From Shigella phage phi25-307: DNA of 64,000 nt. The position numbers and the translations under genes were made by a program. Position 1 is the first letter of the stretch. The number at the start of each line of letters is the position of its first letter. Below the pieces are notes generated by a model. That model had not been told where the DNA came from, searched no databases, and worked only from the letters and a program-made list of their open reading frames with translations. The stretch is taken from sequence record MG589383. One strand, written 5' to 3'. Below are positions 2,994 to 26,915 of this stretch, one piece after another.

Positions 2994-4486
2994 TATAAAC
3001 CTGTCTGGGACCACGGTCCAAATACGTCTTCAAACGAATCCGCTTCTGTTTTATCAAAACGGAACCCTTTAATAATTGGAAGGAAAATACCTACAGTACC
3101 TTCACGGCCTTTAGAATGAACCCAACCATTACATTCACAATCAGCGATACGTCCAATTAATTTACCTTCACGAGCTTCGGTCATTAATCGTTCACGGTCT
3201 AAATCATGACGCTCGTCTAAAGGAATAAGAACCTTTACACCGTCAACTGTTTTATGAGTTGTATCTTTAAACCCTGAACCACAATCGGTTGTAATACGAC
3301 GACAACGTGATACGAGTTCGACACCACCTAATTTGTTAGGGTCTTTAGAGTGTTCATAGTATCCTACAACTTCTAAAGCGATATCAATAACTTCTTTAAA
3401 TTTAATTAGGTTCTTAGAGCGTTTGTTTTCCCAATATGAATCACGGTTTTTAAGGATAATACCTTCAAGACCTTGGTCAACATATTTTTTATAAACTACT
3501 TTAGCTTCGTCAAGATTACGAACTAACTGATTTTCAATTGGTTCAATTCGCTTAAAGCCTTCAGCCATATTTTCAAGAGCAGCAAAACGAACATCGTATT
3601 TCTGACCTTTAATTTTGCCGTCAGAATAGACTTCATCTAAAGGAACATAGTCCCAGGCTTGAAGAACCATACCTTCCGCTTCTTTAGGAGAAATAGTCCC
3701 TTGAAGAGATTTATTTGCTAAACCATTTGAAGTGCTACGGTCTGCAACTTGTACTTCTTCGGATTCTTCATTATCACCAAATAAGAACGACAGGTCATTT
3801 CCTGAGCTCACAGCCTTTTTAATATCGAATGAATGATAAACTAATTCACCGTCGATTAAAACCCCATTAGGGTGTCTTTCACGAGCTTCTTTAGTCATTT
3901 CCATTAGTTCATCCGCTAATAGAGTAAGACCATGGTATTCGTTACCAGCACGAGAAAAGAATTGAACACCATCATCGCGAACTTCAGCGAAACAACGAGC
4001 ACCATCTGCTTTTAATTGGGCAAATGCGGGCCATTTAATATTTTTAGTAATCAATTTCTCATCATATGCAGATGCTAACATCTGTGGTTGCAATTGAATA
4101 AGTCCAGGCCACACCTTATTCGCGATAGACACTGAAGCACCTACTTCAAGGTCGCGCATCATTACACGACGAAGGACTTCTACATCATCAGGTTTACCAT
4201 CAGCGATATAACCCATGAGCTCTTTAATTGCAGCATTACCGGTGAGTTTACGAGTGGCTAATGTGAACTCAATAAAATCCAACATGTCATCTAATTCAAG
4301 AAGACCATATGCTTGAGACCTTTCACCCGGTCCTGGCCATTTCTTAATATAATACTGGATACCACGTGCATATGTTAAACGATACACACGTTCAAGTAAT
4401 TTGTTGTCCTTATTTTTCTTAAGGATTTCTTGTTTTGTTTTAGTAGAACCGATCGCAGCTATTTGGTTTAAAATATCTAAAATCAT
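2993..4486 (-). CDS. 30: ATP-dependent DNA ligase, 497 aa
   Basis: Adenylation motif KADGAR; N-terminal region closely resembles T4 gp30 as remembered; size and position between alt and rIII match T4. Confidence 0.92.
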   Translation of the reverse strand: MILDILNQIAAIGSTKTKQEILKKNKDNKLLERVYRLTYARGIQYYIKKWPGPGERSQAYGLLELDDMLDFIEFTLATRKLTGNAAIKELMGYIADGKPDDVEVLRRVMMRDLEVGASVSIANKVWPGLIQLQPQMLASAYDEKLITKNIKWPAFAQLKADGARCFAEVRDDGVQFFSRAGNEYHGLTLLADELMEMTKEARERHPNGVLIDGELVYHSFDIKKAVSSGNDLSFLFGDNEESEEVQVADRSTSNGLANKSLQGTISPKEAEGMVLQAWDYVPLDEVYSDGKIKGQKYDVRFAALENMAEGFKRIEPIENQLVRNLDEAKVVYKKYVDQGLEGIILKNRDSYWENKRSKNLIKFKEVIDIALEVVGYYEHSKDPNKLGGVELVSRCRRITTDCGSGFKDTTHKTVDGVKVLIPLDERHDLDRERLMTEAREGKLIGRIADCECNGWVHSKGREGTVGIFLPIIKGFRFDKTEADSFEDVFGPWSQTGL

Positions 4487-23064: not shown

Positions 23065-23964
23065 TTATAGACCAGCTAACAGGTCATCGAGGTCGCCATC
23101 GTCAGAAGACGAGGAACTCATGAAGTCATCTTCAGTTTTTGCAGAACTAAAGGCTTCCATGTCTTTATCAAAATCGTCGAGGTCAGAAGCAACTTTATCT
23201 GCAACAGAAGCTGCGGCAGCTGCTGCACCACCAAGAGCGGCAGTACCAAGAACTTGAGTAAATTTAGTATTCAATTCTTCAAACGATTTGAACTTATCTT
23301 TAGAAGTCATTTCAGAAAGGTCAACCATTTGTTCGAACAATTCTTTCTGGAAAGATTCATCATCAATGTTTGGAATCGCAGATTGATTCAGGAATTTAGA
23401 TTCGTCATAGTTACTGAAACCAGAAACCTGTTTAACTTTCAGCACAAAGTTAGCACCTTCCCATGGGCAAGTTACATCAACAGGAGTTTCACCCATTTCA
23501 GTATCGACTGCAATCATTGCATTGATTTTGTCCCAAATCTTTTTACCAAAACGGTATTTGAATACTTTACCTTCATTATCTGGAGCTTGTGGGTCTTTAA
23601 CAACCAGGATATTAGCCCAATAAGAAGTTTTACGTTTCAGTTGAGAATATTCTGTTTTGTTTGTATTGTACAGATCATTTTTACTAATGTACTGACATAC
23701 TGGACAAGAGTCATAATCGCCGTGTGTAGATGAACAGGTTTCAATATACCATTTGCCGTTTTTCTTGAACCCGTGGTTAACAAGAATTGCAAACGGAAGT
23801 GCGTCATCTGTTTTTGCCGGCAGGAAACGAATTACCGCTTGACCATTACCGGATGCATCGAGTTTCAGCTTCCATTCACCTTTATCTTCTGAAGAGAAAC
23901 CTTTGTTACCATTCAGTTTAGCCATCTGAGCTGCGAGGTCTGCGGTACTTTTACGTTTAAACAT
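23065..23964 (-). CDS. 32: Single-stranded DNA-binding protein gp32, 299 aa
   Basis: Close match to remembered T4 gp32 ([36 protein letters not shown]...), acidic C-terminal tail, size about 301 aa. Confidence 0.95.
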
Positions 23965-24041: not shown

Positions 24042-24049
24042 TATTTATA
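24042..24049 (-). promoter_or_regulatory. Candidate late promoter TATAAATA upstream of gene 32
   Basis: Minus strand TTTATAAATAAATC. Confidence 0.4.
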
Positions 24050-24078: not shown

Positions 24079-24732
24079 TTAATACTTACATGATTTGATT
24101 GTTTCTATGAACAATTTCTTAGCAGCATTTCCATCGATTTGAAGTATTTTTCGATATGCCTTTAATTTGGTAGAATAATTTTGCCAGACTAAATTGTCAG
24201 TAAGTTCGTCGTGCTTATCTATAATATTCAAAAATGAGTCCAACAATAAGAAAGTCTCAAATGAGATTATATTGCTTTGTAGCAATTTGAATATGTAGCT
24301 CGACTGAACGTTGTTATTATAATCAAATATCTCTTGAAGCGCACTAACTTCAACTTTCTTACTGAAATAGTAGATGTTACGTACGTCTTCAGCAAACGTC
24401 TCCTTGGCTTGTTTGAGACGTCCAATATATTCCCTATAGAAAACTAATGCATCAGCGTCTGATATCTCACCAATCCATGCGTCTTGGTTAGCAACTAAGT
24501 TGCTTATGAATATCAAGGTGAGTTCCTTCAATTTATATTTCTCTGCTAGTTTTTCAAAGAAATATTTATCTCGGCGTTTTTGATACGCATTATCCGAAAC
24601 ACGCATGCACCAGTTATATTTGATTACGTCATACCGACCACCAAAGTGGTTTTTGCACATCAAGTATAGTTTATATACTGATTTACCGTTAATATAACGT
24701 TCTCCGTCAGGAGGCATGCGTATTTTAATCAT
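24079..24732 (-). CDS. 59: Helicase loader gp59, 217 aa
   Basis: Same length as T4 gp59 and a close match to its remembered sequence (GERYI.GKSVYKLYLM...DVIKYNWCMRVSD.AYQKRRDKYFF). Confidence 0.9.
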   Translation of the reverse strand: MIKIRMPPDGERYINGKSVYKLYLMCKNHFGGRYDVIKYNWCMRVSDNAYQKRRDKYFFEKLAEKYKLKELTLIFISNLVANQDAWIGEISDADALVFYREYIGRLKQAKETFAEDVRNIYYFSKKVEVSALQEIFDYNNNVQSSYIFKLLQSNIISFETFLLLDSFLNIIDKHDELTDNLVWQNYSTKLKAYRKILQIDGNAAKKLFIETIKSCKY

Positions 24733-25408
24733 AGTTCCATCCAGGCCATTTTGAAGATTTAAGTCTATACGTAACTAGAGATGCAGAAATATTAAAAACA
24801 TCCGAAACTTCTGTGCATGACGAGTATTTTATACCATCAATAATTATAGGTTTTTGTTTTTTAATAGTTCTTTCTTTAGAATGCGGCTTTGAATTTGCTA
24901 TTCTAAGAGCTTCTTTGGTTGAATCAGGCATCGGCTTATTCGTTTTTCGCCCTTTTCGGACTTTACTCAAAGCTAATTTATGAGCTTCAGATAGTTTCTT
25001 ACCCTTATTAGGGGATGGTATTTTTCTTTCTAATCTGGTTTTAGATACTTTAGCCTTAGTCTCTTCAGATCTAGGTTTACCTAATTTAGAAAGTGAAATA
25101 GCCCTTTTAGCTTCATCACTTTGTTTTTTACCAGGGCCACCTTTACCACCGGGAACTAAGTTATAAGTATCAGTTCGCAAAACAAAATCTTCATTAACCA
25201 ATTCTGCTTCTTTTTTATAGGCGTCCTTGTCATTATCATATTCATAAAGAATTTCGGTATAAAAATTTTTTAGTCCATATTTAGCTTTGGCCGCTAATAT
25301 AGCGCGGCCTGATCCAATATACCAATCTTTCTCTTTATGTTTTTTGTGTACGCCTATATAAATTTTACCATTTATTTTATTGGTAGTTTTATACACAACG
25401 TATTTCAT
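24725..25408 (-). CDS. GIY-YIG homing endonuclease (Seg-like), 227 aa
   Basis: N-terminal GIY-YIG module VVYKTTNKINGKIYIGV..., basic C-terminal half with repeated K/R-rich DNA-binding-like segments; free-standing between gene 59 and gene 33. Confidence 0.8.
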   Translation of the reverse strand: MKYVVYKTTNKINGKIYIGVHKKHKEKDWYIGSGRAILAAKAKYGLKNFYTEILYEYDNDKDAYKKEAELVNEDFVLRTDTYNLVPGGKGGPGKKQSDEAKRAISLSKLGKPRSEETKAKVSKTRLERKIPSPNKGKKLSEAHKLALSKVRKGRKTNKPMPDSTKEALRIANSKPHSKERTIKKQKPIIIDGIKYSSCTEVSDVFNISASLVTYRLKSSKWPGWNYD

Positions 25409-25743
25409 AATAAGAAATCTAACGTATTAGTTTTTTCACCACGAGCAACTGATGGGCGAAGCATGTTTTCGTCAATTGCTTCGCTTGTAATTTTTTCAAC
25501 AATTCCTGTAGGAATAAATTTAGCAAATTGTGTTTCTGGAATAGAATTTTCTTCCAAGAAAGCAGTTGTTGCTTCTAAATAAGACATACCAAATCGTTCA
25601 ACCATGGATTCGATAATGAATCCGTTTTCTTGTCGGTCAAGTAATTTAGCGATATCATCTTTATCGTGTTTTACTGCTAATTCTTGTTCAGATAAACCGG
25701 CCTCATCAACCGGTTTAATATCACTTAGTGAAAACTGTGTCAT
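25405..25743 (-). CDS. 33: Late transcription accessory protein gp33, 112 aa
   Basis: Same length as T4 gp33 and close match to remembered sequence (FSL.DIKPVDE.GLSE.EL...LLDRQENGFIIE.MVE.FGMSYLEATTAFLEENSIPETQFAKFIP). Confidence 0.9.
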   Translation of the reverse strand: MTQFSLSDIKPVDEAGLSEQELAVKHDKDDIAKLLDRQENGFIIESMVERFGMSYLEATTAFLEENSIPETQFAKFIPTGIVEKITSEAIDENMLRPSVARGEKTNTLDFLL

Positions 25744-25990
25744 AAAGCTCGACTACCTCTTCGTTTTCAGCTTCAAATTGATCACGAGCGTCTTTATGAT
25801 AAAGAGCTAACAAACGATTAAACATTTTTCCATCGACGCCAAGCTCTTCTTTAGCACGAGTACGAATGTCTTTAATCAGTTCATTATAACCAGAAATTTT
25901 AAGTTTGTTATCGGAAGCTTCTTTGACTAGTTTAGCCAGTTCTTCACCATGCACATCTTGATTAAATTCAACTGCTTCTTTCTTAGCCAT
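25721..25990 (-). CDS. dsbA: Double-stranded DNA-binding protein DsbA, 89 aa
   Basis: Start trimmed to ATG 25990 (preceded by GAGG), giving the T4 DsbA length of 89 aa; position between 33 and rnh. Confidence 0.75.
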   Translation of the reverse strand: MAKKEAVEFNQDVHGEELAKLVKEASDNKLKISGYNELIKDIRTRAKEELGVDGKMFNRLLALYHKDARDQFEAENEEVVELYDTVFTK

Positions 25991-25997
25991 GTTTACC

Positions 25998-26915
25998 TCA
26001 GAATTCATTAATTACACTTGTTAATTTAGAAAGACCAGATTTTACAAAGTATGAATAAATCTTGCCTTTAGGTTGTGGTTTATATGAGTTATAATACTCT
26101 ATAATGGTTGAAGCAATATTATCAGGGATATAATCAAAATCAATGAGAACCAAATTTTCTTGATACCGTTTATATTCTTCTGCACTTAATAATACTTCGG
26201 CTTGAGAACGGTCATTGGCAATTGCTTCAATAATCGTTGTTTTCATGCTCGGAGTTCGTTCACCATCAACTCGAGTAAACCAGAAGTCACCACGAACTCG
26301 AACAGATGCAACGCCATCTTTACGGTCACCTTTAAGAATTTTAGTCATGCAATCAATTTCAGCAGAACCGTTCTTAATTTTAACCCATTTTTTCTGTGGT
26401 GGCGACCACTGTTTAACGTTAGGATATTTGTGTAATTGTGTAAAGTCACCATCTGATGCAACAATACATACCTTATGACCAGCTAATGACAAATATTTAG
26501 TTAATACACCGATATGGTCATCCGCTTCATACTTGTCAATATCCATTACAACGTATGGCATGTATTTCTTAATCTCATCAACAACTTGATGGAGTGCAGT
26601 AAAATATCCTTCCCAATCCCACTTTGAAGCTTCACGATCGGTTTTACGATTTTTCTTGTAATAGTAAGCAAAGTCACGACGCCAATAACCTGAAGTAGCA
26701 TTATCCATACACAATACAAATTTTGTATAGCCTTGCTTACGGAACATCACCACGTTTTTACGAATTGAATTCAAGATTACATGGCGAACCATCGGAACAG
26801 TAATTTTATCGCCGTCTTCAAAGTTGTTTAATGCGGCTGCCAATGCAATGTTACTAAAGTCGGCAAGTGCAATACCTTCTTTGTAATCTTCATCCAACAT
26901 CATTTCTAAATCCAT
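25998..26915 (-). CDS. rnh: RNase H (5'-3' exonuclease, FEN-1 family), 305 aa
   Basis: Same length as T4 RNase H and a close match to its remembered sequence (YKEGI...VRH.ILNSI..., DIDKYEADDHI.VL, SSDGDFTQLHKYPNVKQWSP). Confidence 0.92.
   Translation of the reverse strand: MDLEMMLDEDYKEGIALADFSNIALAAALNNFEDGDKITVPMVRHVILNSIRKNVVMFRKQGYTKFVLCMDNATSGYWRRDFAYYYKKNRKTDREASKWDWEGYFTALHQVVDEIKKYMPYVVMDIDKYEADDHIGVLTKYLSLAGHKVCIVASDGDFTQLHKYPNVKQWSPPQKKWVKIKNGSAEIDCMTKILKGDRKDGVASVRVRGDFWFTRVDGERTPSMKTTIIEAIANDRSQAEVLLSAEEYKRYQENLVLIDFDYIPDNIASTIIEYYNSYKPQPKGKIYSYFVKSGLSKLTSVINEF

Follow-up and report, generated by a model that had tools for sequence, protein, structure and literature searches.

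The closest described systems for the locus examined here are GIY-YIG endonucleases of bacteriophage T4. I-TevI, which is encoded in the td intron, is a monomeric enzyme with a catalytic head, a linker and a DNA-binding tail. SegG is encoded between genes 32 and 59 by a promoterless cassette, and its cleavage site lies in gene 32. A T4 review (PMC2988022) lists SegE among the active, mobile, free-standing GIY-YIG endonucleases. Concerning SegD, a title cited in PMC10448857 reports that this enzyme does not home its own gene. Promoterless, translationally coupled cassettes have been described for several T4 seg and mob genes, and free-standing T4 endonucleases often cut hundreds of base pairs away from their own gene (PMC2988022).

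We examined a window of 64,000 nucleotides from Shigella phage phi25-307 (MG589383), a Mosigvirus that shares 99.3% identity with phage PHB12 across 2 kb at this locus. A sequence-only reading of the window had proposed that a free-standing, Seg-like GIY-YIG endonuclease gene (hereafter seg) is inserted between gene 59 and gene 33, with an 8-nt overlap at the start of gene 59. The local gene order is rnh-dsbA-33-seg-59-32, and the features at the insertion are as follows.

24725..25408, minus strand: seg-like ORF, putative free-standing GIY-YIG homing endonuclease gene; ATG start, 684 nt, 227 aa
25405..25743, minus strand: gene 33 (late-transcription co-activator), upstream neighbour; Pfam Trans_coact, 5.9e-26
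24079..24732, minus strand: gene 59 (helicase loader), downstream neighbour; Pfam T4_Gp59_N, 1.9e-49, and T4_Gp59_C, 6.3e-44
25405..25409, minus strand: upstream junction TATGA, left copy of a 5-bp direct repeat; sequence and empty-site alignment
24729..24733, minus strand: downstream junction TATGA, right copy of the 5-bp direct repeat; sequence and empty-site alignment
24729..25404, minus strand: 676-bp segment missing from insert-free relatives; 19-genome alignment

The proposed placement held, both neighbours being identified by Pfam. The 8-nt overlap (24725-24732) can be read directly in the sequence, where seg ends in AAC TAT GAT TAA and gene 59 begins with ATG ATT AAA. As the ORF lies between two separate conserved genes, and in neither an intron nor an intein, it is indeed free-standing. 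At the other end of the ORF, the gene 33 TGA stop and the seg ATG have ATGA in common. The upstream TATGA contains both signals, and the downstream TATGA lies within the final seg codons and bears a rebuilt gene 59 ATG. No paralogues of seg were found within the window. On the far side of gene 33, relatives annotate dsbA (25721-26008 in the window) as 270 or 288 nt through alternative starts; the longest ORF for this gene in the window has 288 nt and shares 11 nt with rnh.

The distribution of seg was then examined in related phages. A scan of IMG/VR with gp59 provided only one close relative, and GenBank phage records were used instead. Among 172 matching records, 27 contain the seg ORF, and the remainder match as two pieces that abut in the record. 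With a 300-bp probe of the insert-free junction, 138 records matched unbroken and the same 27 were split in two. Approximately 125 of the 138 unbroken junctions are at 90% identity or higher and belong to close Mosigvirus relatives. Overall, about one-sixth of the close relatives carry seg. In the empty genomes the two genes are joined by an ATGA common to the gene 33 stop and the gene 59 start, so that the ORF represents a true insertion. The insert is exactly 676 bp and appears as a gap in all nine insert-free genomes of a 19-genome alignment, with boundaries that are ambiguous within the 5-bp repeat TATGA. Both states occur within single ICTV species: mar005p1 includes the occupied WFbE185 and the empty NBG1 and G2469, and JS09 includes the occupied SSE1 and the empty ZQ3. 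In the BASEL collection, Bas45 PaulHMueller carries seg and the junction of AlbertHofmann is empty. The view that seg is strain-specific was therefore borne out by 27 occupied against about 125 empty close records and by the two species of mixed state, and the gene is far from universal at this site, as most close relatives are empty.

The seg cassette has in effect captured the ATGA that normally starts gene 59. The last codons of seg restore a ATGATTAA start, so that genes 33 and 59 both remain intact and would both be expressed.

Beyond the 27 near-identical copies, the next relatives of seg display only 47-58% identity. Homologues hold the same slot in Dhakavirus (LQ5 and AnYang), Winklervirus (CHI14 and LC53) and Karamvirus (KMB20), in a metagenomic contig (L005) related to KMB20, and in one IMG/VR genome. 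Every homologue in the 47-58% range whose context is visible is located between genes 33 and 59. In contrast, the two genes abut in the remaining 20 T4-like loci that were fetched with gp59 and matched gp33, as they do in T4 and T2 with nothing in between. The site is occupied in four Dhakavirus records and empty in dozens, and in Winklervirus it is occupied in CHI14 and LC53 and empty in X20. The 33/59 site is thus polymorphic beyond Mosigvirus, in at least Dhakavirus and Winklervirus.

The copies in Dhakavirus, Winklervirus and Karamvirus start with ATGATTAA(R), coding for M-I-K, which is identical to the start of gene 59. Their 3' ends restore ATGATTAA for gene 59, and the cassette is flanked by a 7-8-bp repeat. 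The repeat in Mosigvirus is 5 bp due to the loss of three bases (MIKY to MKY). In KMB20 (OL828291.1), GenBank annotates the locus at 1298-1897 as a 132-aa hypothetical protein, and the frame is open from an ATG that overlaps the gene 33 stop (MIKYVVYQ...). We rejected the possibility that this is a decayed copy, as the start is mis-annotated and an intact 199-aa ORF is present.

The two Karamvirus-type alleles (L005, 3001-3696, and KMB20, approximately 1298-1897) are 97% identical in DNA over their first 464 nt. At the protein level, head and linker are 99% identical, but the final 45 residues only 44%. One of the two tails is 78% identical to the Dhakavirus tail, and the other 59% identical to the Winklervirus tail. 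This pattern in the sequences indicates that seg alleles of different genera have swapped C-terminal DNA-binding modules. Dhakavirus LQ5 (3818-4447 of the locus) and AnYang (2146 onward) also harbour a second ORF, in the 59/32 slot that segG occupies in T4, and that of AnYang is annotated as a homing endonuclease. With ORFs in both the 33/59 and 59/32 slots, gene 59 of these phages is bracketed by two such ORFs. The ORF list of the window contains no ORF in the 59/32 spacer.

The primary structure of the Seg-like protein was examined in detail. Three regions could be distinguished.

25133..25408, minus strand: N-terminal GIY-YIG nuclease domain, residues 1-92; 100-sequence alignment, I-TevI profile alignment and Foldseek
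24884..25132, minus strand: linker of short helices with NUMOD3-type repeats, residues about 93-175; Pfam NUMOD3 and model
24731..24862, minus strand: C-terminal I-TevI-type helix-turn-helix DNA-binding domain, residues 183-226; PF20987, 5.7e-11

The GIY-YIG and NUMOD domains anticipated by the sequence-only reading were recovered to different degrees. Pfam NUMOD3 matched residues 93-122 with 20.8 bits against a cut-off of 20.4. For the GIY-YIG domain, the SegE_GIY-YIG model gave 22 bits, slightly under its cut-off of 25. Support for the protein as a whole came from other profiles. PHROG 314 (homing endonuclease) spans it from end to end (1.2e-55), and Pfam I-TevI_DNA-bd (PF20987) matches residues 183-226 (5.7e-11). 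A family profile made from 18 homologues identified solved structures of I-TevI, the DNA-binding domain 1I3J (4.2e-6) and the catalytic domain 1MK0 (9e-4), and a phmmer search with the protein itself also matched 1I3J (5e-4). An AlphaFold model, generated with an alignment of 100 sequences as input, has a pLDDT of 92 and places linker helices at residues 98-108, 115-127, 141-152 and 162-173. The top Foldseek matches of this model are both I-TevI domains (probability 1.00); the nuclease domain adopts an alpha/beta fold matching 1MK0 with a TM-score of 0.65, normalised on the target, and the DNA-binding structure matched is 1I3J_A. These results confirmed an I-TevI-like layout, in which a flexible NUMOD3 linker joins a GIY-YIG head to a DNA-binding tail of the helix-turn-helix type.

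Residues Y6, Y17, G19, Y30, G32, F49, E67, Y82, N83, G87 and G88 do not vary among 100 homologues. When the family profile is aligned to I-TevI (1MK0/1LN0), Y6 pairs with Y6, Y17 with Y17, E67 with E75 and N83 with N90. The tyrosines of the GIY/YIG hairpin are present in VVY (Y6) and IYIG (Y17, with G19), and the metal-binding positions E75 and N90 of I-TevI are matched by the invariant E67 and N83. The catalytic Tyr/Tyr/Glu/Asn set expected of a GIY-YIG endonuclease is thus intact. H21, D28, Y30-x-G32-S33-G34 and K43 constitute motifs of the subfamily. One difference concerns residues 23-30 of I-TevI, the helix that carries R27, which appear as an insertion in the profile alignment. In the Seg-like protein this position is taken by a loop, K24-G34, with the motif D28-x-Y30-x-G-S-G, and T4 SegD and SegE are laid out likewise. 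Taking into account that SegD and SegE share this layout and that SegE is listed as active, we regard the missing helix as a trait of the subfamily and not as a sign of inactivation. H21, K22, R35 and K43 are basic residues that are candidates for a role corresponding to that of I-TevI R27.

We searched for signals that would drive expression of seg. No late promoter (TATAAATA) was found within or just upstream of seg, and the nearest is located at 24042-24049, preceding gene 32. Sigma-70-like hits stood only about two standard deviations above the mean of shuffled sequences (21 against 12.9, s.d. 3.6). A promoter of its own was therefore rejected. Direct reading revealed no Shine-Dalgarno-like sequence preceding the shared seg ATG. 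With neither a late promoter nor a Shine-Dalgarno sequence, seg seems to be promoterless and translationally coupled, and its translation is presumably coupled to gene 33 termination. At 25405-25445 there is a weak, G-U-rich hairpin in which the shared AUG is paired with upstream sequence from the 3' end of gene 33. This AUG serves seg, or gene 59 in the empty genomes, and the hairpin exists in both states. We rejected a function in masking the start codon, as the z-scores against shuffled sequences were not significant.

Selection on seg and variation in its flanks were evaluated in Mosigvirus. All ten copies examined are intact ORFs of 684 nt. The pN/pS ratio of seg was 0.105, against 0.026 and 0.067 for gp59 and gp33, respectively, of these genomes. 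The intact ORFs and the low ratio show that seg is under purifying selection. Synonymous diversity was 0.10 in seg and 0.13 in gene 59, and with values this close there is no sign of a recent sweep of seg. The flanks were compared among 19 genomes, 10 with and 9 without seg. The two groups are not separated by any fixed SNP, no allele between 22.4 and 27.4 kb is private to all carriers, and no clear co-conversion tract surrounds seg in these population data. As there is no fixed difference in the alignment, we rejected carrier-specific protective SNPs as an explanation. G53, a phage without seg, does not differ from the window over 100 bp on the gene 59 side of the junction and 190 bp on the gene 33 side, so a nearby SNP cannot be what protects a carrier. 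If the target lies within this identical interval, protection of the carrier would have to come from the insertion alone.

Three patterns of association were observed in these genomes. The haplogroups of seg co-vary with the adjacent gene 59 haplotype. Gene 32 is present as two deeply diverged alleles among Mosigvirus genomes that are otherwise about 98% identical, with allele 2 in 7 of the 10 carriers and 1 of the 9 non-carriers. The window, PHB12 and WFbE185 combine seg with the allele common in non-carriers, the window having allele 1. Because these three carriers hold the 'non-carrier' allele, a simple model with the gene 32 allele as target was rejected. Finally, about eight substitutions are clustered at 24629-24679 (gene 59 codons approximately 18-35) in 5 of 9 non-carriers and in none of the 10 carriers. 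This cluster may mark a target that has diverged, or may be a gp59 variant with no connection to seg. The three patterns fit linkage or old co-conversion and prove neither. In gene 32 (23065-23964 in the window) and the 32/59 spacer up to about 24040, the alleles switch near the spacer, giving a sharp mosaic boundary. Some of the substitutions at 24629-24679 are non-synonymous.

We consider it probable, at roughly 0.7, that the ORF is a functional free-standing homing endonuclease gene of the Seg-type GIY-YIG class, as yet putative, from a lineage specialised for the 33-stop/59-start junction of T4-like phages. The 676-bp, promoterless cassette resides inside the rnh-dsbA-33-59 operon. When a carrier and an insert-free relative infect the same cell, the enzyme would bind the insert-free allele and cut it at or near the 33/59 junction, and the recombination machinery of the phage would mend the break from the seg-bearing genome. 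Repair would copy seg together with some flanking sequence into the recipient, and the carrier would be spared because the insertion splits the recognition site. The junction is one option only for the target, as free-standing endonucleases often cut hundreds of base pairs away. A cut at a distance, for example in gene 32 as by T4 SegG or deeper in gene 59, with carriers protected by variants there and not by the insertion, would agree with the usual behaviour of free-standing T4 endonucleases (PMC2988022), with the excess of gene 32 allele 2 among carriers (7/10 against 1/9) and with the substitution cluster at 24629-24679 found in 5/9 non-carriers only. We nevertheless find it doubtful, as three carriers (the window, PHB12 and WFbE185) have the gene 32 allele that is common among seg-free genomes and the interval from 22.4 to 27.4 kb holds no allele private to all carriers.

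Several results run against homing itself: the ten carriers and nine non-carriers display neither a fixed SNP nor a clear co-conversion tract, the synonymous diversity of seg is similar to that of gene 59 so that the polymorphism could be old and driven by loss, the canonical R27 helix is missing in the subfamily, and SegD, the closest T4 protein, is reported in the cited title not to home its own gene (PMC10448857). Some of these would agree with an old resident, present at 33/59 before the four genera split and lost repeatedly through precise deletions between the ATGATTAA/TATGA repeats. The nuclease would then be retained for a different function, for instance cleavage of competing genomes at other sites, which has been proposed for SegD. 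Between genera, seg (50-58% identity) has diverged at least as far as gp33 (54-61%) and gp59 (77-79%); within Mosigvirus the pS of seg is close to that of its flanks; the cassette is bounded by direct repeats; the co-variation with gene 59 haplotypes is expected for vertical linkage; and SegD offers a precedent of a nuclease reported, in that title, without self-homing. We still judge long residence with repeated loss unlikely. In at least two other genera, Dhakavirus and Winklervirus, carriers are likewise few and scattered, so that very many independent, exact deletions over repeats of 5-8 bp would be needed. Continuing homing is the simplest explanation for purifying selection on a gene that has no known benefit, and the cross-genus exchange of the C-terminal module shows that seg alleles meet and recombine. 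The missing arginine helix and the sub-threshold Pfam GIY-YIG score could also point to a gene that has lost its mobility and encodes either a relic without catalytic activity or a protein that solely binds DNA, such as a repressor with a homing endonuclease ancestor. This is highly improbable, taking into account that T4 SegE, listed as active and mobile (PMC2988022), has the same arginine-less layout, that Y6, Y17, E67 and N83 are invariant in 100 homologues, and that 10 of 10 ORFs are intact with a pN/pS of 0.105 across the whole length.

Within the reading of seg as a functional homing endonuclease gene, we tentatively raise a more specific proposal, which we hold to be possible at somewhat less than even odds. 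Seg may act as a 'start-codon-swapping' cassette, whose target is the gp33-stop/gp59-start junction itself. Insertion would destroy the target and pass the initiation signal to seg, and the re-supplied ATGATTAA would make the insertion near cost-free. The cassette would have tracked this junction through at least four genera of Tevenvirinae, with the DNA-binding module swapped as the target drifts.

Public annotations already assign the gene to this class in various terms, including 'homing endonuclease', 'segD' and, for the PHB12 protein that is 100% identical to that of the window, 'putative Seg-like homing DNA endonuclease'. In the literature, we found no paper describing a seg insertion at 33/59. 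The gene marks strain-specific content in Mosigvirus, and it is a likely hotspot of recombination and marker exclusion beside the essential genes 33, 59 and 32. Many Mosigvirus phages are in development for therapy and biocontrol. As seg-bearing and seg-free phages are both available in public collections, homing at 33/59 is directly testable. The fidelity to one site across four genera, the rebuilt gene 59 start and the swapped module also provide a natural series for following how an endonuclease reduces its cost to the host and is retargeted. The current picture of homing endonuclease biology is left unchanged by these findings.

Seg at 33/59 is an uncharacterised example of the well-known Seg-type class, and is distinct from the characterised T4 enzymes. 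Among named T4 proteins, SegD is the best full-length match (36% identity, E 3e-39), and like the window protein it has a GIY-YIG head with H..D.Y.GSG, NUMOD3-like linker repeats and a C-terminal helix-turn-helix. The T4 segD gene, however, lies between genes 23 and 24 in the antisense orientation, whereas seg in the window is co-oriented with and coupled to its neighbours. SegE is 45% identical over the 91-aa nuclease domain (E 2e-22), with the same motif set and likewise without the R27 helix, but its C-terminal half is unrelated. Its gene is found between inh and uvsW and its target is uvsW, so that both site and target differ. The only solved structures matching the model are those of I-TevI (1MK0/1LN0, catalytic, and 1I3J, DNA-binding). 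The two proteins share the architecture of monomeric head, linker and tail, but I-TevI is intron-encoded and has an R27/H31 helix and a zinc finger in its linker, while the window protein is free-standing, lacks this helix, and has NUMOD3 helices in place of the zinc finger linker. In terms of location, SegG is the nearest, as its gene, also a promoterless GIY-YIG cassette, occupies the neighbouring slot in the same cluster of replication genes. SegG is encoded on the other side of gene 59 from seg and cuts in gene 32, and it sets a precedent for marker exclusion and co-conversion around genes 32 and 59.
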